From Candidatus Eiseniibacteriota bacterium (GTDB taxonomy: Bacteria; Eisenbacteria; RBG-16-71-46; SZUA-252), in the NCBI GenBank assembly GCA_031370645.1, contig JANMQV010000151.1, positions 10,416 through 74,415 of the forward strand: DNA of 64,000 bases. Reading direction: 5' to 3'. Positions within the stretch are counted from its first letter, which is position 1; every line of letters begins with the position of its first letter. Shown here piece after piece: positions 4,741 to 14,175 of this stretch. Under the pieces are notes generated by a model. It was not told where the DNA came from. It saw only the letters and a program-made list of their open reading frames with translations, and made no database searches. The translations under genes and the position numbers were made by a program.

Positions 4741-4802
4741 TCATTTTCGTAATGGCCACACGGCACTACCTGCCGGGCGAGAACGAGCGAGGCAAGGACG
4801 CG

Positions 4803-6482
4803 ATGTCGCCACTTCCCGACCCCCTTCGAGAACCTGAAGCCTCTGGCGGCCGTATCGAGCAGGATCCGCTCGATCGGTTGAACGACGGGCTGACGCAATG
4901 GGAGCGCGAGCTCCTGGCGGAGCCGTCCACCCAGTCGCGGCCCCGCGCGCCCCATCTCGGACGCTACAAAGACCTTCTCGATGCCAGCCGCTCCGTTACC
5001 GGCACGCTCGACCCGAACGAACTCCTCCTCCGCGTGGTGGACGCCGTCATTCGCATCGCCGGCGCCGACCGCGGCTTCCTCATGCTCATGCACGAGGAAG
5101 GAAAGCTCCAATTCGAGATCGCCCGTAGCAAGGACGAGACGACGCTCCCGCCGAGCGAATTCCAAATCTCCTTCGGCATCGCCGAGGAAGCCGCGCATCG
5201 CCGCGAGACCGTCTGGGTTCCCGACGCCGTCGGCTCCTCGCTCTTCCAGGACCGGAAGAGCGTCCGCGCGCTTTCGCTCCGCACGGTCGTCGCCATTCCG
5301 ATTCTGAATTCGGGGCGCGTTCTCGGCGTCCTCTACATCGACTCCCATTCCATCACGCACGAATTCTCGACCGAGGACATCGCGCTTCTCGAAGGGTTCG
5401 CCGCTCAGGTGGCGATCGCGCTCGAGAACGCCCGCGTCCACGAGTCGCTCCGCGACACGAAGAACCGCCTCGAGATCGAAAATCTGAATCTGCGCCGAGC
5501 GCTGAAGGAAGACGTCCGGTACGGATTGCTCGTCGGGCGGAGCCCCGCCATGGGGCAGGTCGTGGATTTGATTGAAAAGGTGATTCCGACGCAAGTCACC
5601 GTGCTGATCCACGGCGAGACCGGAACCGGTAAGGAAGTCGTGGCGCGCGCCATTCACCTGAACGGTCCGCGGAAGGACGAGAACTTCATCGCCGTGAATT
5701 GCGGCGCCGTACCCGAGGCGCTTCTCGAAAGCGAGCTCTTCGGGTACAAGAAGGGAGCCTTCACCGGCGCCAACGAAGACCGCGTCGGACTCTTCGAGGC
5801 GGCCGACAAGGGGACGCTCTTCCTCGACGAGGTCGGGGAGATGCCGGCGAGCCTTCAGGTGAAGCTTCTCCGCGTGCTCCAGGACTCTCACATTCGGCGC
5901 GTGGGCGACACCGTCTCGCGGAAGGTCGACATCCGGCTCATCGCCGCGACGAATCGCGATCTCCGCGCCGAGGTCGACGCCGGTCGCTTCCGTCAGGACC
6001 TCTTCTACCGCATGAACGTCGTGCCGGTCACGCTGCCGCCGCTTCGCGATCGCGGCGACGACATTCTCCTCTTCGCGCAGCATTTCCTGGAGGCGTCGGC
6101 CAAGCGCCAGCGGAAGTCGATCGTCAGTTTTACGCCCGAGGCGCGCGAGCTTTTGCTCCGGCACCCGTGGCCGGGAAACGTTCGCGAGTTGGAGAACGCC
6201 ATGGAACGCGCGGTCGCCCTCTCCGACGACGGCGTGGCCCTCGAGCCGCATCTCTTCGGACTCGGCGCATCCGTTGCGCGCCGCTGGGACGGGCAGCACT
6301 CGCTCCGCGAGACGATGGAGGCCGTCGAAGCCGAAACGATTCGCGAGGCGCTTCGCCAGAGCGAATCGAACGTCTCTCGCGCGGCGCGCGCCCTCGGCGT
6401 GAGCCGCCAGCATCTTCACAACCGGATGAATTTCCACGGCATCCGGCGTTCGCGAATTTTGAACGAGTCCGGGGGTAAGTGA
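4803..6482 (+). CDS. GAF-domain sigma54 enhancer-binding protein (GAF-AAA+-HTH)
   Basis: GAF (ADRGFLML...GVLYIDS...AIALENA), [33 protein letters not shown]; alternative start at 4752. Confidence 0.93.
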   Translation: MSPLPDPLREPEASGGRIEQDPLDRLNDGLTQWERELLAEPSTQSRPRAPHLGRYKDLLDASRSVTGTLDPNELLLRVVDAVIRIAGADRGFLMLMHEEGKLQFEIARSKDETTLPPSEFQISFGIAEEAAHRRETVWVPDAVGSSLFQDRKSVRALSLRTVVAIPILNSGRVLGVLYIDSHSITHEFSTEDIALLEGFAAQVAIALENARVHESLRDTKNRLEIENLNLRRALKEDVRYGLLVGRSPAMGQVVDLIEKVIPTQVTVLIHGETGTGKEVVARAIHLNGPRKDENFIAVNCGAVPEALLESELFGYKKGAFTGANEDRVGLFEAADKGTLFLDEVGEMPASLQVKLLRVLQDSHIRRVGDTVSRKVDIRLIAATNRDLRAEVDAGRFRQDLFYRMNVVPVTLPPLRDRGDDILLFAQHFLEASAKRQRKSIVSFTPEARELLLRHPWPGNVRELENAMERAVALSDDGVALEPHLFGLGASVARRWDGQHSLRETMEAVEAETIREALRQSESNVSRAARALGVSRQHLHNRMNFHGIRRSRILNESGGK

Positions 6483-7477
6483 CCGACCTCGCCTCGCTCC
6501 GCCTCGCGTCGCTCCGGGCCATCCTGATGCAAAGCGACGCGGAACTCCGCGCGCATCTTCCCGAGTATTTCCTCACCTACTACAAGCATCTCAACATCCT
6601 CCGAAATCCCGCCCGCATCGAGCACGTCTTCCAGAAGGGCCGGGAGATGTTCGAGTACCTGGAGGCGGACGGAAAGGAGATCCTCGACCTCGGCGCCGGG
6701 TTCGGCATCGAGGCACTCCTCGTCGCGATTTACGGAGCGAAGAAGGTGATCGCGACCGAGATCGATCACGACATGGTGGCGGTCGGCACCTACCTCGCCG
6801 GCGCGATCACGCCCAAGGTCGAGCACTTCGAGTCGCGCTACGGCGACGGCATCGCCATGGAATTTCCCGCCGCCTCCTTCGACGGCGTCATGGCGAACTG
6901 CGTCATCTCGCACGTGCGCGACCTGGAGGGATTCCTGAGCGAGGCGCACCGGCTCCTCCGGCCGGGCGGAATCTTTTTTCTCAGCGACGAGAACAATTCG
7001 CTCTACCTCCCGGCTCGGTCGCGGCGCCGGAGGGGGTGGAACGACATGGAGCGGGAGCCGGGCGGTCCTTATTTCGCGGCCCGCTTGGCCATGGTGAAGG
7101 AACGCTTTCCCGAGCTGAAGGGCGCCGCGCTCTTCACCGCCGTGCGGGCGACCCGCGGCCTCTGGGGCGATACGGTGGCGGAGGGAGTGCGCGAACTCCA
7201 GGCGAAGGGGCGGCTCTCGGCTCCTCCGGAGTTCCTCTATCGCGACCCGCGGGACGGGCAGTATCCAGAACGGGAGTTGAATCCCTTTTGGATGATGGAA
7301 CGATTCCGGGCCGCGAAGTTGGAGCCAGAACTCCTCCCGGCCTTTTTCTCCCGGGGAATCGAAGTCCATCTTCGCCAGGTGGTGAAGGACGTGCTCCGCT
7401 TCTTCTGCAGCCGCTGGCCTGTGCTCTCCGTCTATGTTTGGCCCATTATGAGGCTTCGGGGCCGAAAAGCCCGTTGA
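6479..7477 (+). CDS. Class I SAM-dependent methyltransferase
   Basis: ILDLGAGFG motif I, SFDGV, HRLLRPGG; start overlaps upstream stop. Confidence 0.85.
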   Translation: MTDLASLRLASLRAILMQSDAELRAHLPEYFLTYYKHLNILRNPARIEHVFQKGREMFEYLEADGKEILDLGAGFGIEALLVAIYGAKKVIATEIDHDMVAVGTYLAGAITPKVEHFESRYGDGIAMEFPAASFDGVMANCVISHVRDLEGFLSEAHRLLRPGGIFFLSDENNSLYLPARSRRRRGWNDMEREPGGPYFAARLAMVKERFPELKGAALFTAVRATRGLWGDTVAEGVRELQAKGRLSAPPEFLYRDPRDGQYPERELNPFWMMERFRAAKLEPELLPAFFSRGIEVHLRQVVKDVLRFFCSRWPVLSVYVWPIMRLRGRKAR

Positions 7478-7502
7478 CACCCTCGTAGCACCCGCCTAGG
7501 CT
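7474..7502 (+). promoter_or_regulatory. Sigma70-type promoter, 8 nt before GTG 7511
   Basis: TTGACA-N17-TAGGCT. Confidence 0.7.
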
Positions 7503-7510
7503 CCGCTTCC

Positions 7511-8704
7511 GTGCGACTGACCGCGTCGAGCCTAGCCGTCCTGACGCTTCTGGTGCTCGCGAGGCCCGCCGGGGCTGTCGCGCCCGTCACAACACCACCT
7601 CCACCTCCCGAACTTCCTGCCCCCACCGACTTCGCCGCCGTTGACCGGCCCGGAGACGGCGGCGGCGCGATCCTCCTTACCTGGAAGGACCCCGAAGCGC
7701 TCCCTGCGGGAACCGTGCTCGAAGTCCGGCGCGCGGAGCCGCCCGCCGATGAGTTCACGGCACTGAAGACCGTGGCCCCCGGGGCGCAGCGCTACGTCGA
7801 TACCTCGGCGAAGGACGGGATGACCTACCGCTACGAACTCCGCGTTCGGGGCGAAGAGACGCCCGATTCGCTCGGCATTGCGGGCGCCGTCGGCCCCGCG
7901 CTCGTGAGCGAACCGATCTCGCCGCATGACAATTGGTTCCGCAACGAGCGGATGAACTCGCTCATCGCCTCGATCCTCTTCATCACCTTCATCCTGGCCT
8001 CGATCGCCTACGCTCGCTCCGGAAAGCCGATCTTCATTCGCCGCATCGCCGGCTTGAATGCCATCGATGAAGCGATCGGCCGCGCCACCGAGCTCGGGAA
8101 GAAGGTGCTCTACATTCCCGGCATCCAGAGCATGGACGAGATCCAGACGATCGCGAGCATCGCGATCCTGGGGCACGTGGCGCGCGCCACGGCCCGATAC
8201 GGCACCGACCTCGACGTTCCCAATAAGGACCCGCTCACCTTCGTCTCGGCGCGCGAGGCGGTCCAGTCGGCCTATTTGTCCGAAGGTCGGCCCGACCTCT
8301 TCCGCGACGACATGGTCCATTACGTCACCTACGATCAGTTCGCCTTTACGGCCGCCGTCTCCGCGCAGATGACGCGCGAGAAACCGGCGGCGATCTTCCT
8401 GGTCGGGTACTTCTTCGCGGAATCGCTCATCCTAGCCGAGACCGGGCAGTCGACCGGCGCCATCCAGATCGCCGGGCAGGCGGATCCGACGCAGCTCCCG
8501 TTCTTCGTCGCCACCTGCGACTACACGCTCATCGGCGAGGAGCTCTACGCCGCGAGCGCTTATCTTTCGCGGGAGCCGGTGCTCCTCGGCTCCATGCGCG
8601 GGCAGGATATCGCCAAGGCGGTGCTCCTCGCGGTGGGGATCCTCGGGATCATCGCGGTCAGCTTCGGCGCCACCTGGGTCCTCGATCTGGTGAAGACCCA
8701 ATGA
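7511..8704 (+). CDS. Fibronectin type III plus DUF6754-like membrane protein
   Basis: Signal peptide, Pro-rich linker, FN3-like segment (AILLTW...YVDT..DGMTYRYEL), TM helix, IRRIAGLNAIDEAIGRATE and DYTLIGEELYAASAYLSREP motifs. Confidence 0.75.
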   Translation: MRLTASSLAVLTLLVLARPAGAVAPVTTPPPPPELPAPTDFAAVDRPGDGGGAILLTWKDPEALPAGTVLEVRRAEPPADEFTALKTVAPGAQRYVDTSAKDGMTYRYELRVRGEETPDSLGIAGAVGPALVSEPISPHDNWFRNERMNSLIASILFITFILASIAYARSGKPIFIRRIAGLNAIDEAIGRATELGKKVLYIPGIQSMDEIQTIASIAILGHVARATARYGTDLDVPNKDPLTFVSAREAVQSAYLSEGRPDLFRDDMVHYVTYDQFAFTAAVSAQMTREKPAAIFLVGYFFAESLILAETGQSTGAIQIAGQADPTQLPFFVATCDYTLIGEELYAASAYLSREPVLLGSMRGQDIAKAVLLAVGILGIIAVSFGATWVLDLVKTQ

Positions 8705-9501
8705 ACCTCGAATTCGGCCGCGTGACGCTCGTCGTTCTCTTCGCGATCATCCCCATCGTGGGGATCGTGCTCGGGATGCGCGCGCCGGCGCTTCGAAGCA
8801 AGATTCCGCTCCTCGTCGCGTTCTTCGCCGGCCTCATCCCGATCTTCTCGATGTACATCCCGAAGAAATTCCTCTCCGGCGAAAGCGGCATGAGCCCTCG
8901 TCTCGATCAGTGGCTCATCATCGTGGCCGGCTTCGCGCTCCTGCTCGGAATCACAAACGTCATCTCGAACGGCGCTCGAAAAATTTCCCGCCGGGACCGC
9001 GGCTGGCCCTACGCCATCGTGCTCTTGACGGGACTCTTCGTCATGGGTGGGTTCGGGATCTACGCGGCCGTCTCGGGGCAGGGGATGGGGTTCCTCCCGA
9101 ATGGAACGCCGACACCGTTTCGCTGGGTGGAGAGCACGGTGTTCCAGCCGCTTCAGTCGACCATCTTCGCGCTCCTCGCCTTCTTCATGGCGAGCGCCGC
9201 GTTTCGCGCCTTCCGCGCTCGGAACACCGAGGCGACGATTCTCCTCATCGCAGGCGCCATCGTGATGACGGGCCGCGTGCCGCTTCTCGAGTTACTGGCC
9301 GCACCGTTCCCGCCGCTTCAGCCCGCGGCGGCCGCCGCGAGCCAGTTCATGGGGAAGGCGACGGAGTGGATCATGGACACGCCGAACGGGGCCGCCCAGT
9401 CGGGAATCATCATCGGCGCCGCACTCGGCGCCGGCTCCATGGCGATCCGCGTGATTCTCGGCATCGAACGCGGCTACCTCGGCCTCGGGAAGGGGGAGTA
9501 G
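8701..9501 (+). CDS. Uncharacterised polytopic membrane protein
   Basis: About 7 hydrophobic segments; LLAFFMASAAFRAFRARN; ATGA overlap with upstream gene. Confidence 0.8.
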   Translation: MNLEFGRVTLVVLFAIIPIVGIVLGMRAPALRSKIPLLVAFFAGLIPIFSMYIPKKFLSGESGMSPRLDQWLIIVAGFALLLGITNVISNGARKISRRDRGWPYAIVLLTGLFVMGGFGIYAAVSGQGMGFLPNGTPTPFRWVESTVFQPLQSTIFALLAFFMASAAFRAFRARNTEATILLIAGAIVMTGRVPLLELLAAPFPPLQPAAAAASQFMGKATEWIMDTPNGAAQSGIIIGAALGAGSMAIRVILGIERGYLGLGKGE

Positions 9502-9502
9502 C

Positions 9503-10381
9503 GTGCAAGCCTTCTTCCGGTTCCTTCTCGCGCTCGACCGTCGCTGGATCTTTCTCCTCGTTCTCTTGAGCGTGACGATCCCGATCGTCGTCCCGATCGG
9601 GCTTCCCGTCACGACAACTTCCTCCACGCGAAACGCCTTCGAGTTCGTGGAGGCGCTGAAGCCCGGAGATCTCGTCTGGCTCTCGATCGATTACGGTCCG
9701 TCCTCGGCGCCGGAAAACGATCCGATGGCGGAGGCGTTTCTCCGGCAGTGTCTGCTCAAGAAGGTCCGCGTCATCGTGACCGCCCTCTATCCGCTCGGCG
9801 GCCTCGGTCTCGCGAACGCGGTGGTGGCGAAGATCACGGCCGAGTATCCGGAGGCGAAATACGGCGTCGACTACATCAACCTCGGATATAAGGACGGTGC
9901 CGCGGCGGTGATGCGGACGCTGGGGCAGGACATCACGTTGTCGTTTCCGACCGACGTGAACGGGCGCCCCGTCTCCGAATTTCCGATCATGCAGGGCCTT
10001 CGCACGATCCGACAGCTCGACCTCGTCTTCACCGCGGCGACCGGCCTCATCGGGGAGTGGTGGATCACGCAGGTCCACTCCCAGTTCGGCACGCCCGTCA
10101 TCATCGGGCCGACCGCCGTGAGCGCGCCGAAGTACTACGCCTTCATCAATTCGGGGCAGCTGGTCGGGATGCTGGGCGGGATGAAGGGCGCGGCCGAGTA
10201 CGAAAAACTTCTCGCGGCCAAGCACGAATCGCTCGGGAGGTTCTACCGAGGCACACACGCCTTCACGGCCACGAAGGGGATGGACGGGCAGACCGTGCTC
10301 CACGGCGTCATCCTGGCGCTCATCGTGCTTGGGAATCTGGCGTTCTTCATGACGCGCGGCAAGAAGGCGGGGGCGGCGTAA
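9503..10381 (+). CDS. Uncharacterised membrane-anchored protein with a soluble alpha/beta domain
   Basis: N- and C-terminal TM helices; DYGPSSAPE, DYINLGYKDG, GMLGGMKGAAEYE; 1 nt after upstream stop. Confidence 0.8.
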   Translation: MQAFFRFLLALDRRWIFLLVLLSVTIPIVVPIGLPVTTTSSTRNAFEFVEALKPGDLVWLSIDYGPSSAPENDPMAEAFLRQCLLKKVRVIVTALYPLGGLGLANAVVAKITAEYPEAKYGVDYINLGYKDGAAAVMRTLGQDITLSFPTDVNGRPVSEFPIMQGLRTIRQLDLVFTAATGLIGEWWITQVHSQFGTPVIIGPTAVSAPKYYAFINSGQLVGMLGGMKGAAEYEKLLAAKHESLGRFYRGTHAFTATKGMDGQTVLHGVILALIVLGNLAFFMTRGKKAGAA

Positions 10382-10383
10382 CG

Positions 10384-11016
10384 ATGGAATTCGTCGGAAT
10401 CGGGACCTGGTTGGCCGCCTTCCTCACGCTGGCCGCCCTCTCCTTCCTCTACAAGGACAATCCGTTCTTCCGTTTCGCCGAGAGTCTTTTCGCCGGCGTC
10501 TCGCTCGGCTACTACGTGGGAATCGTGCTGAACCAGACGCTCGTCCCGAATCTCTTCGAGCCGCTCGCGAAGGACTTCAAGACGAACTGGGATCTGTTGG
10601 TTCCCGGGCTCTTGGGGCTGATGCTCTACGTGCGGTCGGTGCCGCGCATCGGTTGGATCTCGCGCTACGCGCTCGGGATCTACGTCGTCTACTACATCGG
10701 GGTCGATTTCACGCGGCGGATCCATGGGGAGGTGATGCCGCAGATCGCGCGGACGATTCGGCCGCTCCAGGCCTTCGACGGGCCGACGCTCGTCTCGCTC
10801 ATCTTCATCATCGGGGTCTTCAGCGTGCTGATCTACTTCTTCTTCTCGAAGGAGCAGAACGCGGTCACGCGGCCGATCGCCCGGCTCGGGACGTGGTTCC
10901 TCATGGTCTCCTTCGGCGCCGCCTTCGGGTTCACCGTCATGGGGCGCGTGGCGCTCCTGATCGGCCGGCTCAACTTCCTCATTCAGGACTGGATTTACCC
11001 GACGATCGGTCGGTAG
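10384..11016 (+). CDS. Uncharacterised polytopic membrane protein
   Basis: About 6 TM segments; LSFLYKDNPFFRFAE, FLMVSFGAAFGFTVMGR; ATG 2 nt after upstream stop. Confidence 0.8.
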   Translation: MEFVGIGTWLAAFLTLAALSFLYKDNPFFRFAESLFAGVSLGYYVGIVLNQTLVPNLFEPLAKDFKTNWDLLVPGLLGLMLYVRSVPRIGWISRYALGIYVVYYIGVDFTRRIHGEVMPQIARTIRPLQAFDGPTLVSLIFIIGVFSVLIYFFFSKEQNAVTRPIARLGTWFLMVSFGAAFGFTVMGRVALLIGRLNFLIQDWIYPTIGR

Positions 11017-11770
11017 TCCCCCTCGGTTTCACGCCGTCCTTCTCGCCCGCCGCCTCCGCCCGGTTGCGCGTTTCGTCCGTTTCGAAAAGCTCCGACGACG
11101 CCCGGAGATTCACCATCGGGACCGTCATCTTGTTTCCGGCCGGGTAGTCGGTCGTCACCACGTCTCGCAGGGCCGAGACGCGGTGGGTGAGGTTCGCGAT
11201 CGCCTCGGTCGCGGCGCGGATCCGCTGGACCTTGTCCCGGACTTCGGGCGCCAGGTTCGGCAGGACGTGCAGGAGTTGCGCGTTCCCCTGAATCACCTGG
11301 AGCGGGTTGTTGATCTCGTGGTTCAAGGCCACGGCCATGGCCGAGACGGCCTTCATCCGCTCCGTGCGGAGCCGTTCTTCCGAAGCCTGATGAAGCGCGA
11401 GGGCGTTTCGGACCTTGATCGGCAGCTGAAAGCGGATGTCCCAGTCCGTGAGCGGCTTCATGAAGTAGTCGACCGCGCCCAATTCCAGACTCCGCTCCAC
11501 GTCCTCCGGGGAGGTCGAGGCGCTCGCCACGATGACCGGAAGGTCGCGAAGCCGTTCGTTCGCGCGCATGGAGGTGAGAACGTCGAATCCATTCGGAGGC
11601 GGCATCATGAGATCGAGGAGAACCAGATCGATCGCTTCTCCGGCCAGGTGCCGCAGGGCCTCGTGGCCGTCGTCCGCCTCGAAAAACTCGTAATCGCCCT
11701 TCCGGAGAACCATCCGGAGGAGCTTCCGGTGGTGCGGCTCGTCGTCAACGAGCAGGATGCGATGCAGCAT
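10979..11770 (-). CDS. Receiver domain fused to a HisKA dimerisation/phosphoacceptor domain, no HATPase domain
   Basis: ILLVDD, LVLLDLMMP, DYFMKP, then LNHEINNPL H-box; ORF ends without N/G1/G2 boxes. Confidence 0.85.
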   Translation of the reverse strand: MLHRILLVDDEPHHRKLLRMVLRKGDYEFFEADDGHEALRHLAGEAIDLVLLDLMMPPPNGFDVLTSMRANERLRDLPVIVASASTSPEDVERSLELGAVDYFMKPLTDWDIRFQLPIKVRNALALHQASEERLRTERMKAVSAMAVALNHEINNPLQVIQGNAQLLHVLPNLAPEVRDKVQRIRAATEAIANLTHRVSALRDVVTTDYPAGNKMTVPMVNLRASSELFETDETRNRAEAAGEKDGVKPRGTTDRSSGKSSPE

Positions 11771-12173
11771 GGCTTCCCTTCCCGATGAGGGCCTTCACCC
11801 GGTCGATCAGATCGTCCGCGCTCAGGATCGGCTTGGAGACGTAGTCGTTCGCGCCGGAGTCGGCGAGGAATTTTTCCCGCGACCCCTTCATGGCGTGCGC
11901 CGTGGCCAAGATCACCGGAACCCGGCTCGCTCGCGGGTCGCCCTTCAATATCCGGGTGATCGCGAGGCCGTCCACGGGCGCTCCTTGATACGTGCTGTTC
12001 GAGAGCGAGACATCCATGATCACGAGATCCGCGCGGCCCTCGCGCGCCTCCTCGATCACGTAAGCGGGGTCCTCGGTCACGACAACTTCGAAGCCGGCCT
12101 TCCGAGCGAGAATCAGTTGGAAGAGCTTCGCGTTCATCGGATCGTCTTCGACGACGAGGATGCGCGGTTTCAT
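11745..12173 (-). CDS. Single-domain response regulator (DivK-like)
   Basis: ILVVEDD, VIMDVSL, TAHAMKG, YVSKP. Confidence 0.92.
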   Translation of the reverse strand: MKPRILVVEDDPMNAKLFQLILARKAGFEVVVTEDPAYVIEEAREGRADLVIMDVSLSNSTYQGAPVDGLAITRILKGDPRASRVPVILATAHAMKGSREKFLADSGANDYVSKPILSADDLIDRVKALIGKGSHAASHPAR

Positions 12174-12186
12174 GGTTTCCTCCTGG

Positions 12187-14175
12187 TTACGCCTGCGATC
12201 CGGCCGCCTCGGCGGCCGGAGGCGCGGGGGCGCTTTCGACGGGGAAGGAGAGGCGAACCCGAGTTCCGCGGTTCGCCCCGTCGCTTTCGACGCTGATCGA
12301 ACCGCCCATCTTTTCGACGAGTCCCTTCGAGATGGCGAGGCCGAGACCGGTGCCCGGCCTTCGCCGCGAGTACGACTCCTCGCGCGACGCGTATTTGGTG
12401 AAGAGCTTCGACTGGCGGTCGAGCGGAATGCCGATGCCGGTGTCGGCCACGACGACGCAAACCTCCATGCGATCGTCGTCCCGCCACGCGCGAACCGAGA
12501 CCTCGCCGCGATCGGTGAACTTCACCGCGTTTCCGACGAGGTTCAGCATGACCTGGCGGAAGCGAGCGGAGTCGTGCGGGAACGTGAGGTCGCTCTCGGG
12601 GAGTTCGATCCGAACTTCCAGCCCCTTCCCGTCGGCCTCCGGCGCCACGGCGGCGACCGCCGCGCGCACCGCGTCCCGCCCGTCGCCCCGTTCCACGGTC
12701 AGGTCGAGACGCCCGGCCTCCATCTTGGCGAGATCGAGGATGTCGTTCAGGAGCCCGAGGAGATGCTCCGCGCTCAGCCGCACCGAATTGGCGAAGGAGC
12801 GGACCTCTTCGGCCGATTCGGCCGACCCCTGTTCCAGAAGCGAGGCGAAGCCGATGACGCTGTTGAGCGGCGTGCGAAGCTCGTGCGACGTGTTCGCGAG
12901 GAATTGCTGCTGCGTCTGTCGCGCTTCCTCGAGTCGCGTGTTCGCTTGCCGCAACTGATCGTTCAGATGGCGCTGGGCCTGGGCGTTCACGCGGAGCGCC
13001 TCTTCTCGCTCGCGGCGCTCGGTGACGTCGCGGGCGATCACGAGGCAGGCGCTTCCCCCGCTCTCGGGATGGGCGACCGCCGTGACCATGGCGTCGCACG
13101 GGACCTGCCGGCCGTCGGACGCGCGCAGACGAATGGCGACTTGCACCGATTTCCCGTCGGCGACGAGGTTCCCCGGCAGGAACGGCCGGCCCGAAGCCTC
13201 CTCGATCGCGAACTCGGAAAGGGCGCGCCGCCGAAGCGTTCCGGGTGCGGCGCCGATCGCGCGCTCCGCCGTCTCGTTCGCGTCGGCCACGCGCCCCTCT
13301 TCGTCGAGCAGGAGAACAAGCTCGCTGCTTCCGCGGAGGTAGGTCGCAAGCATCCGGTCGCGCCGCTCCATCTTCAGTCGCTTGAGTCCCACGGCGAGTT
13401 GCGAGGCCGTCCACCGAACGAGCGCCAGCTGGTCCCCCTCGAAGCCCCTCCGTCGCGGCACGAAGCACTGGAGCACCCCCACCGCCTCGCCGCGATCGGT
13501 GAGCGGTACGGAGACGACGATCGGATCGGCGCCGAGTCCCACCGTCGATGCGGGGAACGCGTAGCGGGGGCCCGAGCCGGGATCGCGCGAGACAATCGTA
13601 TCGACGAGCCAGGCGGCGCGCGTCGCGGGGGAGTGGGCGTTCGGTCCGATCGGATCGGGCGCCAACTCCGCCGTCGCGCCGTCCGGAAGCCCGCGCGTGG
13701 CGGTGAGGCGGAAGGCGCCGTCCCGCTCATCCCTCCGATAGATGGCCCAGAACGACAGGCCCGTTCCCTCGGCAATGACGTCGAGCGCGCAGCGGACGAG
13801 CTCATCCTCGCGATCGAGGCGCTCCAGCGTTTCGCCGACGCGGTAGATCGTGAGCTGCGCGCGGAGGTTTCGGATCCGTTCCATCTCGGCGAAGCGGCGA
13901 CGGAAGGCGAAGAGGCCGAGAAGCGCCGTGGCCGCGACGACGGCGGTCCCGAAAAAGATCCTCGCGTGGTGGCGAACTTCGACGGGGACGCCGAGCGCCT
14001 CTCCCGGCGTGAGCTGATACGCCGTGTAGCCGAGTACGGCCATGAGGAACGCGACGCCGAACGCGTAGCGTCGCGCGAGGGAATAGCGAAGTTGCTCTCG
14101 GCTTTCGGCCGCCGACGGCAGCGGGGCCTGAATCGACTTCTTCTGCTTCGTCGGACGCGCCAAGTACCCCTCCAT
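12187..14175 (-). CDS. Membrane sensor histidine kinase (2TM-GAF-PAS-HisKA-HATPase)
   Basis: SHELRTPLN, NLVGNAVKFT, DTGIGIP, GTGLGL; PAS ending in RDVTER. Confidence 0.93.
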   Translation of the reverse strand: MEGYLARPTKQKKSIQAPLPSAAESREQLRYSLARRYAFGVAFLMAVLGYTAYQLTPGEALGVPVEVRHHARIFFGTAVVAATALLGLFAFRRRFAEMERIRNLRAQLTIYRVGETLERLDREDELVRCALDVIAEGTGLSFWAIYRRDERDGAFRLTATRGLPDGATAELAPDPIGPNAHSPATRAAWLVDTIVSRDPGSGPRYAFPASTVGLGADPIVVSVPLTDRGEAVGVLQCFVPRRRGFEGDQLALVRWTASQLAVGLKRLKMERRDRMLATYLRGSSELVLLLDEEGRVADANETAERAIGAAPGTLRRRALSEFAIEEASGRPFLPGNLVADGKSVQVAIRLRASDGRQVPCDAMVTAVAHPESGGSACLVIARDVTERREREEALRVNAQAQRHLNDQLRQANTRLEEARQTQQQFLANTSHELRTPLNSVIGFASLLEQGSAESAEEVRSFANSVRLSAEHLLGLLNDILDLAKMEAGRLDLTVERGDGRDAVRAAVAAVAPEADGKGLEVRIELPESDLTFPHDSARFRQVMLNLVGNAVKFTDRGEVSVRAWRDDDRMEVCVVVADTGIGIPLDRQSKLFTKYASREESYSRRRPGTGLGLAISKGLVEKMGGSISVESDGANRGTRVRLSFPVESAPAPPAAEAAGSQA

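Follow-up and report, generated by a model that had tools for sequence, protein, structure and literature searches.

Several described membrane systems resemble, in one respect or another, the four-gene module considered here. The module lies in a 64,000-nucleotide stretch of a Candidatus Eiseniibacteriota genome (contig JANMQV010000151.1 of assembly GCA_031370645.1, positions 10,416 to 74,415); this whole stretch is referred to as the window, its coordinates are used throughout, and the four genes are called g1, g2, g3 and g4. The protein encoded by g1 carries the Pfam domain DUF6754. Tripartite ATP-independent periplasmic (TRAP) and tripartite tricarboxylate (TTT) transporters combine several membrane subunits with an extracytoplasmic alpha/beta domain, use no ATPase and occur as several paralogous sets per genome, all of which are features shared with the module. 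However, neither g1-g4 nor the members of the g2 and g4 family alignments (A4 and A5) match DctP, DctQ, DctM, TctA, TctB or TctC in Pfam or NCBIfam. Moreover, the predicted outer domain of the module is a single Rossmann-like lobe tied to helices at both ends rather than a two-lobed, free binding protein, and the module has a fourth subunit with a putative cytoplasmic domain. ATP-binding cassette (ABC) and energy-coupling factor (ECF) transporters are also unlike it: g1-g4 contain no Walker A motif and no EcfT/CbiQ or ABC membrane-domain family, and no ATPase gene adjoins the module in the window.

The mannose-family permeases of the phosphotransferase system (PTS) share with the module two mid-sized polytopic subunits and a cytoplasmic alpha/beta domain, and in some phyla the module directly follows genes for HPr, enzyme I (EI) and a sugar-phosphate isomerase. 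However, there is no sequence or profile similarity between the two, g1 has no invariant His, and the module also occurs where EI was not found. In ABC-2 pairs of the GldF/GldG type, a six-helix permease is paired, and sometimes fused, with a protein having end helices and a large periplasmic domain, and the pair operates with an ABC ATPase. The combination of g4 with g3 mirrors this arrangement of a permease and a helix-domain-helix partner, but the module encodes no ABC ATPase, no ABC-2 or auxiliary-component family was matched, and in the fusion proteins described below g3 precedes g4, with an extra helix between them. Finally, the RCK/KTN domains of the K+ transporters' TrkA and KtrA are cytoplasmic, whereas the g3 domain is predicted to be periplasmic and contains no GxGxxG motif. 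As described below, the four genes are conserved as a unit. We propose, at a probability of about 0.4, that they specify an ATP-independent, ion-gradient-driven translocator for a carbohydrate-type substrate.

Conservation of the four genes as a unit

In the ORF (open reading frame) list of the window, the module consists of four co-directional ORFs on the + strand within 7511-11016 (Table 1). g1 and g2 overlap by 4 nucleotides (nt; ATGA at 8701-8704), g2 and g3 are 1 nt apart (TAG-c-GTG at 9499-9505) and g3 and g4 are 2 nt apart (TAA-cg-ATG at 10379-10386). This is exactly the tight coupling described in an earlier annotation of the window made from its letters alone, hereafter the sequence-only reading. 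The loci used for comparison came from a scan with a g3 alignment, one genome per species, which gave at least 564 stretches, and 80 loci were kept. In 74 of them, tblastn placed g1, g2, g3 and g4 in this order on one strand, across several phyla. In the other six (L008, L022, L024, L036, L067 and L073), the missing genes would fall past the contig end. The genes therefore co-occur elsewhere with their order kept; a failure to do so had been named in the sequence-only reading as a result that would refute it. A full set of four ORFs could be called in 68 loci, and most junctions there measure from -4 to about +60 nt; the exceptions are a g2-g3 spacing of 571-2106 nt in six loci and a g3-g4 spacing of 353-1121 nt in four. 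The gene inserted between g2 and g3 is named by Pfam in four of those six loci: LiaF-like (L045 and L058), a Ser/Thr kinase (L062) and a STAS protein (L064). An extra gene inside the module is thus seen in some Zixibacteria, to which these four loci belong.

An exhaustive search of public data returned 3446 clusters of the g3 family (50% identity) at E <= 0.001, and three natural g3-g4 fusion proteins (P0177, P0197 and P0238) are present among the best 150 of these 3446. Among three longer g2 forms from one search, none was fused to g1 or g3. The pairwise distances among the four families are correlated with r 0.82-0.95 (66 complete sets). In the window's phylum, the presence of g1 and that of g3 agree in 148 of 151 sampled genomes, and both give the same number of matches in 128 (r 0.98). 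A match need not correspond strictly to one gene copy, and related genomes do not count as independent samples. This sample, like one of 81 genomes used below, includes one unpublished genome (G015), with one match per search, and no claim hangs on it. Because the four genes form one conserved unit, they are most naturally read as encoding a stoichiometric membrane complex. Such a complex had been suggested in the sequence-only reading and gains comparative support from the strict gene order, the tight junctions, the g3-g4 fusions and the matching g1 and g3 numbers. On these comparisons, it is very probable that the four genes encode one inner-membrane assembly.

The module is common in the phylum. 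DUF6754 was matched in 137 of the 151 sampled genomes (108/118 among those of high quality) and the g3 profile in 138, with one to nine module matches per genome. By record titles, it is found in Eisenbacteria, Zixibacteria, Ignavibacteria, WOR-3, Stahlbacteria, Cloacimonadota, Latescibacterota and others; none of 14 well-known control genomes had a DUF6754 match. The sequence-only reading had placed DUF6754 clusters in uncultured bacteria and some archaea; the bacterial part of this holds, but no archaeal record is present among the 80 loci. The window's own genome (3.0 Mb, 95% complete) carries three full sets, namely the window copy and those of contigs 32 and 203, which are mutually 36-51% identical. 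Judged by g3 identity, the g3 proteins of the other two sets are nearer to those of loci of other phyla than to that of the window copy.

Anatomy and predicted membrane sidedness of the four proteins

No characterised transporter, ATPase or redox family was matched by g1-g4 in Pfam, NCBIfam, PADLOC or PDB sequence profiles. The sequence-only reading had named a match to a characterised transporter family as the result that would tell against it, and the Pfam and NCBIfam searches found none. It had also reported no Walker or redox-cofactor motif; accordingly, a motif scan of g1-g4 found no Walker A, CxxCH or CxxC, and the four proteins together contain two cysteines. PDB sequence profiles gave only weak fibronectin type III (FN3) rows and no solved-structure match, none of the four proteins matched a PADLOC anti-phage model at E <= 0.1, and no glycosyltransferase, acyltransferase or flippase family of Pfam or NCBIfam was matched by any of them. 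The four proteins are not detectably related to each other (hhalign probability <= 2.2% in all six pairs). Full-text literature searching found no paper on DUF6754 or PF20539, with about 1.7 million PubMed Central articles and the subscription journals lying outside the search. Among the papers listed for Eisenbacteria together with membranes and operons, no title or abstract opening concerns the module.

The g1 protein has a signal-like N-terminus (approximately residues 1-22), an FN3-like domain, a first transmembrane (TM) helix delimited as 147-171 or as 145-169, the DUF6754 region and a final TM helix delimited as 364-395 or as 356-384. Pfam, the AlphaFold model and hydropathy together bear out the anatomy given in the sequence-only reading (signal peptide, FN3-like domain, TM helix, alpha/beta domain and final TM helix). 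The match to DUF6754 (PF20539), a family with no function assigned, scores 379.6 bits (cut-off 27; E 7.4e-114) over residues 139-392 and covers positions 2-255 of the 257 in the profile. Its invariant residues in 32 sequences include E304, S305, E310, Q319, Q328, C336, D337, Y338, T339, E343 and E344. The AlphaFold model has a mean predicted local distance difference test score (pLDDT) of 75.4. Its N-terminal domain shows the seven-strand beta-sandwich by which fibronectin type III is recognised; the Pfam fn3 sequence model has no match in g1 at E <= 1, and the PDB profile search reached E 0.21 at best. The domain is called FN3-like because the fold agrees and the Pfam fn3 model is unmatched. 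Both match lists of the g1 fold search were filled by the FN3 domain and are hardly informative on DUF6754. A short stretch of DUF6754 looked like EIIB-sorbose, a relationship rejected when the likeness was lost on profile comparison. The long N-terminal extensions of g1 homologues contain no Pfam domain, and at least one of these extended ORFs runs into an adjacent gene and has probably been called too long.

For g3, the AlphaFold model (45-row alignment) has a pLDDT of 95.8 and a predicted TM score (pTM) of 0.91. It shows a helix at 13-29, a Rossmann-like alpha/beta domain at about 40-250 and a helix at 256-291, exactly the order of TM helix, alpha/beta domain and TM helix read earlier from the sequence. 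The C-terminal helix bears the invariant Q263, H267 and N278, and D63, E71 and D123 of g3 are likewise invariant. g3 was modelled alone; in the g3-g4 fusion alignment (A6), the second helix of the separate g3 rows fell on the g4 part. Structure searches gave only generic Rossmann-fold matches, those to RCK/KTN domains tying with many other Rossmann-like folds, and an ESM Atlas search gave unnamed clusters only. Two members of the family carry additional segments: P0235 has about 540 amino acids (aa) of CARDB-type repeats inserted inside the g3 domain (29.2 bits, cut-off 22.7), and P0149 has a C-terminal extension beyond a third helix.

The g2 protein has seven hydrophobic segments in a hydropathy scan, in agreement with the earlier count of about seven TM helices. 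The first of these segments is missing in homologues of 204-242 aa (alignment A4), and the invariant residues of this alignment include R169. In g4, the same scan shows four strong hydrophobic segments. Two weaker ones are visible by eye only, so that the earlier estimate of about six TM helices is secure for four and plausible for six. Invariant residues of g4 include D25, N26, E33 and R188 (alignment A5). Pfam and NCBIfam hold no family for g2, g3 or g4, nor any consistent family at E <= 1 for the 32 members of either alignment. Two weak Pfam matches were rejected: 7TMR-DISM_7TM for g2, found in only 4 of its 32 family members, and CrgA for g4, found in only 3 of 32. An ESM Atlas search with g2 gave no usable named match. 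In three g2 variants (P0392, P0393 and P0394), a loop of g2 carries about 380-410 inserted residues. The insert of P0394 opens with a module similar to the N-terminal FN3-like part of g1 (BLASTP E 0.002; hhalign E 3.5e-4, probability 37%), a resemblance that may be a weak sign of the unit. To the eye, this insert resembled carbohydrate-binding modules, an identification that was dropped when Pfam found nothing in it.

The FN3-like domain of g1 is predicted to be periplasmic because a signal-like N-terminus precedes it, and DUF6754 is predicted to be cytoplasmic because basic residues follow the first TM helix. The tails of the g3 family are basic at both ends (mean 3.4 and 3.8 Lys+Arg), and the linker of the g3-g4 fusions needs one extra helix. 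Because of these basic tails, the extra linker helix and the CARDB insert in P0235, the Rossmann-like domain of g3 is likely to lie outside, in the periplasm. Hence, the two membrane-tethered globular subunits proposed in the sequence-only reading are real according to models and hydropathy, and their globular domains (DUF6754 in g1) appear to face opposite sides of the membrane.

Genomic setting of the module and its paralogues

Upstream of g1, the -35 hexamer of a promoter-like pair overlaps the TGA stop of a methyltransferase gene, which is separated from g1 by an intergenic gap of 33 nt. The -10-like hexamer ends 8 nt ahead of the g1 GTG, and 6-8 nt ahead of the conserved start in orthologues. 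TTGACA and TAG[G/T]CT are kept, 17-18 nt apart and with a variable spacer sequence, in 13 of the 15 orthologous loci compared; the remaining two stood out of register, with the ORF start set wrongly. A strict sigma-70 consensus scan of 7000-11500 called 0 sites because TAGGCT agrees with TATAAT at only three of six positions. The single strong promoter of the sequence-only reading is therefore upheld as a conserved hexamer pair but not as a consensus sigma-70 site. Because the -10-like hexamer sits 6-8 nt before the conserved start codon, the g1 mRNA may be near-leaderless, with little or no leader; it would then start inside the 33-nt gap or at its edge, at about 7509-7511. A sigma-54 promoter was considered and rejected: its pattern matched 13 times against 10.3 expected, and no match upstream of g1 was convincing. 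No terminator-like site follows g4 in the scan of 7000-11500, and g4 runs at its 3' end for 38 nt into the convergent response-regulator gene.

Table 1. Positions of the module, its parts and nearby genes (window coordinates unless a locus is named)
Feature	Position	Strand	Remarks
g1	7511-8704	+	397 aa, GTG start; ORF
g2	8701-9501	+	266 aa; ORF
g3	9503-10381	+	292 aa; ORF
g4	10384-11016	+	210 aa; translation
Promoter-like pair	7474-7502	+	-35 TTGACA at 7474-7479, 17-nt spacer, -10-like TAGGCT at 7497-7502
FN3-like beta-sandwich of g1	7604-7924	+	residues 32-138; predicted periplasmic
DUF6754 region of g1	7925-8686	+	residues 139-392 (Pfam); TM helix, then putative alpha/beta domain, predicted cytoplasmic
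GAF/sigma-54 activator gene	4752-6482		overlaps methyltransferase gene by 4 nt
S-adenosylmethionine (SAM) methyltransferase gene	6479-7477		
Response regulator with HisKA-like region	10979-11770	-	adjoins module in 9 Eisenbacteria-type loci
Receiver-only gene	11745-12173	-	
GAF/PAS histidine kinase ORF	12187-14175	-	
Protein directly upstream of paralogue A	L004 4303-5430	+	376 aa; no family, no PDB relative
Paralogue B neighbours	L005 3892-6021 and 8967-11006	-	C-terminal tetratricopeptide repeats (TPR) in one; F5/8 type C in the other

Neighbouring genes were named by Pfam or NCBIfam scans of the ORFs called in this analysis. The window copy and its orthologues have the GAF/sigma-54 activator and the SAM methyltransferase upstream and the convergent response regulator with HisKA downstream. 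In L007, L009 and L012, activator and methyltransferase are one ORF of 859-893 aa, which in L012 bears GAF, sigma-54-interaction and methyltransferase domains. In five WOR-3/Stahlbacteria loci (L055, L057, L060, L065 and L072), a DUF4388 protein comes after g4 with an overlap of a few bases; in L072, the one such locus examined further, four small family-less ORFs come after it. The order in Ignavibacteria- and Zixibacteria-type loci is HPr, EI, a bifunctional phosphoglucose/phosphomannose isomerase, g1-g4, a sugar-1-phosphate nucleotidyltransferase, SAM synthetase and S-adenosylhomocysteine (AdoHcy) hydrolase. Outside the Eisenbacteria-type group, 16 of 36 loci have the isomerase as their closest upstream ORF. 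Junctions were inspected in 11 of these loci, and in four of them the isomerase stop and the g1 start overlap by 4 nt. Nine of these 11 have a downstream ORF, and in six of the nine (L041, L054, L059, L064, L071 and L077) the nucleotidyltransferase is the first downstream ORF, or in two cases the second.

The own genome also has a mannose-type PTS cluster (L096; contig 106, 27000-45000) in which rpoN, hpf, hprK, EIIA-man, EIIB-sorbose, a 251-aa ORF, EIID, HPr and EI are co-directional. The nucleotidyltransferase and AdoHcy hydrolase genes come after EI in this cluster, without the module. EIIB-sorbose was found in all 81 sampled genomes of the phylum. The two further sets of the own genome are called paralogues A and B. 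The gene for the 376-aa protein upstream of paralogue A adjoins the module in just three other loci (L079, L089 and L069). Paralogue B is flanked by a TPR-bearing protein of 680 aa and a protein of 710 aa, both polytopic by eye; the F5/8 type C match of the latter is below threshold (25.1 bits, cut-off 28.2).

Proposed function and its rivals

The gene unit, the anatomy of the domains, their conservation and the lack of an ATPase or cofactor motif are shown by the data above. For the translocator that we propose, we infer that the proteins assemble, on which side each domain lies, what kind of substrate is carried, in which direction, and what drives transport. g2 and g4 would contribute roughly twelve membrane helices, forming the path through the membrane. 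g1 would be held in the membrane by two helices, with an optional FN3 module in the periplasm and DUF6754 in the cytoplasm, and g3, likewise held by two helices, would expose its Rossmann-like domain to the periplasm. Outside, the substrate would be handled by the g3 domain together with the FN3 or CARDB add-ons; on the inside, the invariant acidic and polar cluster of DUF6754 may bind it, or couple or gate the path. The features that we count as transporter-like are the one to nine matches per genome, the three paralogous sets of the own genome, the lack of a Walker A or redox motif in g1-g4, and the invariant charged and polar residues near or within membrane segments. The guess of a carbohydrate-type substrate is made because of the isomerase operon links in Ignavibacteria and Zixibacteria and the FN3 and CARDB add-ons; the hints counted for it are the isomerase and nucleotidyltransferase neighbours, the CARDB repeats of P0235 and the sub-threshold F5/8 type C match near paralogue B. 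Taken further, the module could represent a new class of translocators that work without ATP, consist of four subunits and have no relation to TRAP, TTT, ECF and PTS permeases, with globular domains on both faces and one to nine versions per genome, possibly serving as a main carbohydrate route in these uncultured phyla. In this full form the proposal is somewhat less probable.

Several points weigh against a carbohydrate translocator. All records of the module are metagenome-assembled genomes, and both the distance correlations and the genome tallies are inflated by shared ancestry. Residues 277-332 of g1, which hold most of its invariant residues, are modelled at pLDDT < 50. The neighbours vary by lineage, with Eisenbacteria, WOR-3/Stahlbacteria and Ignavibacteria/Zixibacteria types. 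Moreover, the link between nucleotidyltransferase and module is probably an inherited neighbourhood, because the own genome has a block running from HPr and EI through the nucleotidyltransferase to AdoHcy hydrolase without the module, and the sugar context overall may likewise reflect neighbourhood inheritance rather than function. Only the isomerase-module link is specific.

The same sugar context could fit a membrane-bound complex that works as enzyme and exporter for an envelope glycan or glycolipid. An activated sugar would then be the substrate of DUF6754, the product or a lipid-linked intermediate would travel through g2 and g4, and g3 with its FN3 or CARDB additions would process it or hand it on. 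This is consistent with the isomerase and sugar-1-phosphate nucleotidyltransferase in the operon, a GDP-mannose-dehydratase-type gene downstream in L085, the LiaF-like genes, of an envelope-stress type, between g2 and g3, the position of paralogue B between the TPR-bearing and weak F5/8 type C proteins that look polytopic, and the invariant acidic cluster in DUF6754. It is nevertheless unlikely, given that no glycosyltransferase, acyltransferase or flippase family is matched, that the nucleotidyltransferase stands in the same block also where the module is missing, and that one to nine matches per genome would be unusual for a single biosynthetic machine. A module for energy transduction or signalling would pass force or a signal between the cytoplasmic DUF6754 and the periplasm, using an ion gradient or sensing a periplasmic cue, with FN3 or CARDB repeats as spacers towards the wall or the outer membrane. 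Pfam and NCBIfam gave no similarity to MotA/ExbB, MotB/ExbD, GldL/M or sensor kinases, no output domain is fused to g1-g4 and no outer-membrane partner was identified. We consider such a role quite unlikely, even though globular domains on both faces held by two helices each, the invariant Q263, H267 and N278 in the second g3 helix, and the variable periplasmic extensions on g1, g2 and g3 would all suit it, as would the regulatory neighbours (the sigma-54 activator and response regulator, DUF4388 in WOR-3, and the kinase and STAS inserts in Zixibacteria).

A new PTS permease with DUF6754 as a divergent EIIB-like domain was examined because the module sits after HPr, EI and isomerase in some phyla. 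The gaps there, in Ignavibacteria- and Zixibacteria-type loci, are 0 to -4 nt. Five such genomes have HPr (5/5) and EIIA_2 (5/5), with PTS_EIIC in 0/5 and EII-Sor in 1/5, and DUF6754 contains one invariant Cys. However, comparison of DUF6754 (A2) with 30 EIIB-sorbose domains (A7) gave an hhalign probability of only 0.1% (E 0.55), and no invariant His is found among the g1 columns. In addition, g2 and g4 are unlike the 251-aa ORF at the EIIC position of the own-genome cluster, itself without a Pfam match, and the three modules of that genome lie far from this cluster. The EI N-terminal domain was not found in two of five other module genomes, one of them titled a chromosome and the other a draft, which is weaker evidence. 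On these sequence comparisons, a PTS link is not supported, and such a permease is exceedingly improbable. That the four proteins are independent of each other, held together by co-regulation alone and forming no assembly, would agree with the lack of g1-g2 and g2-g3 fusions in the one search for longer g2 forms. It is nonetheless very improbable in view of the invariant order across phyla, the overlapping junctions, the existence of g3-g4 fusions, and the agreement of g1 and g3 match numbers even at five to nine per genome.

Three of the four module proteins (g2, g3 and g4) carry no family name and the fourth has a domain of unknown function. The module is widespread, occurring in 137/151 genomes of the phylum and also in a number of other candidate phyla for which metagenomes are the only source. 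Experiments can start directly from the g3-g4 fusions and from the few invariant residues. If the module is a transporter, as we propose, its architecture would define a new class, and a gap in the metabolic models of these phyla would be closed. Should it be an envelope or energy machine instead, it would represent lineage-wide cell biology that has so far gone undescribed.

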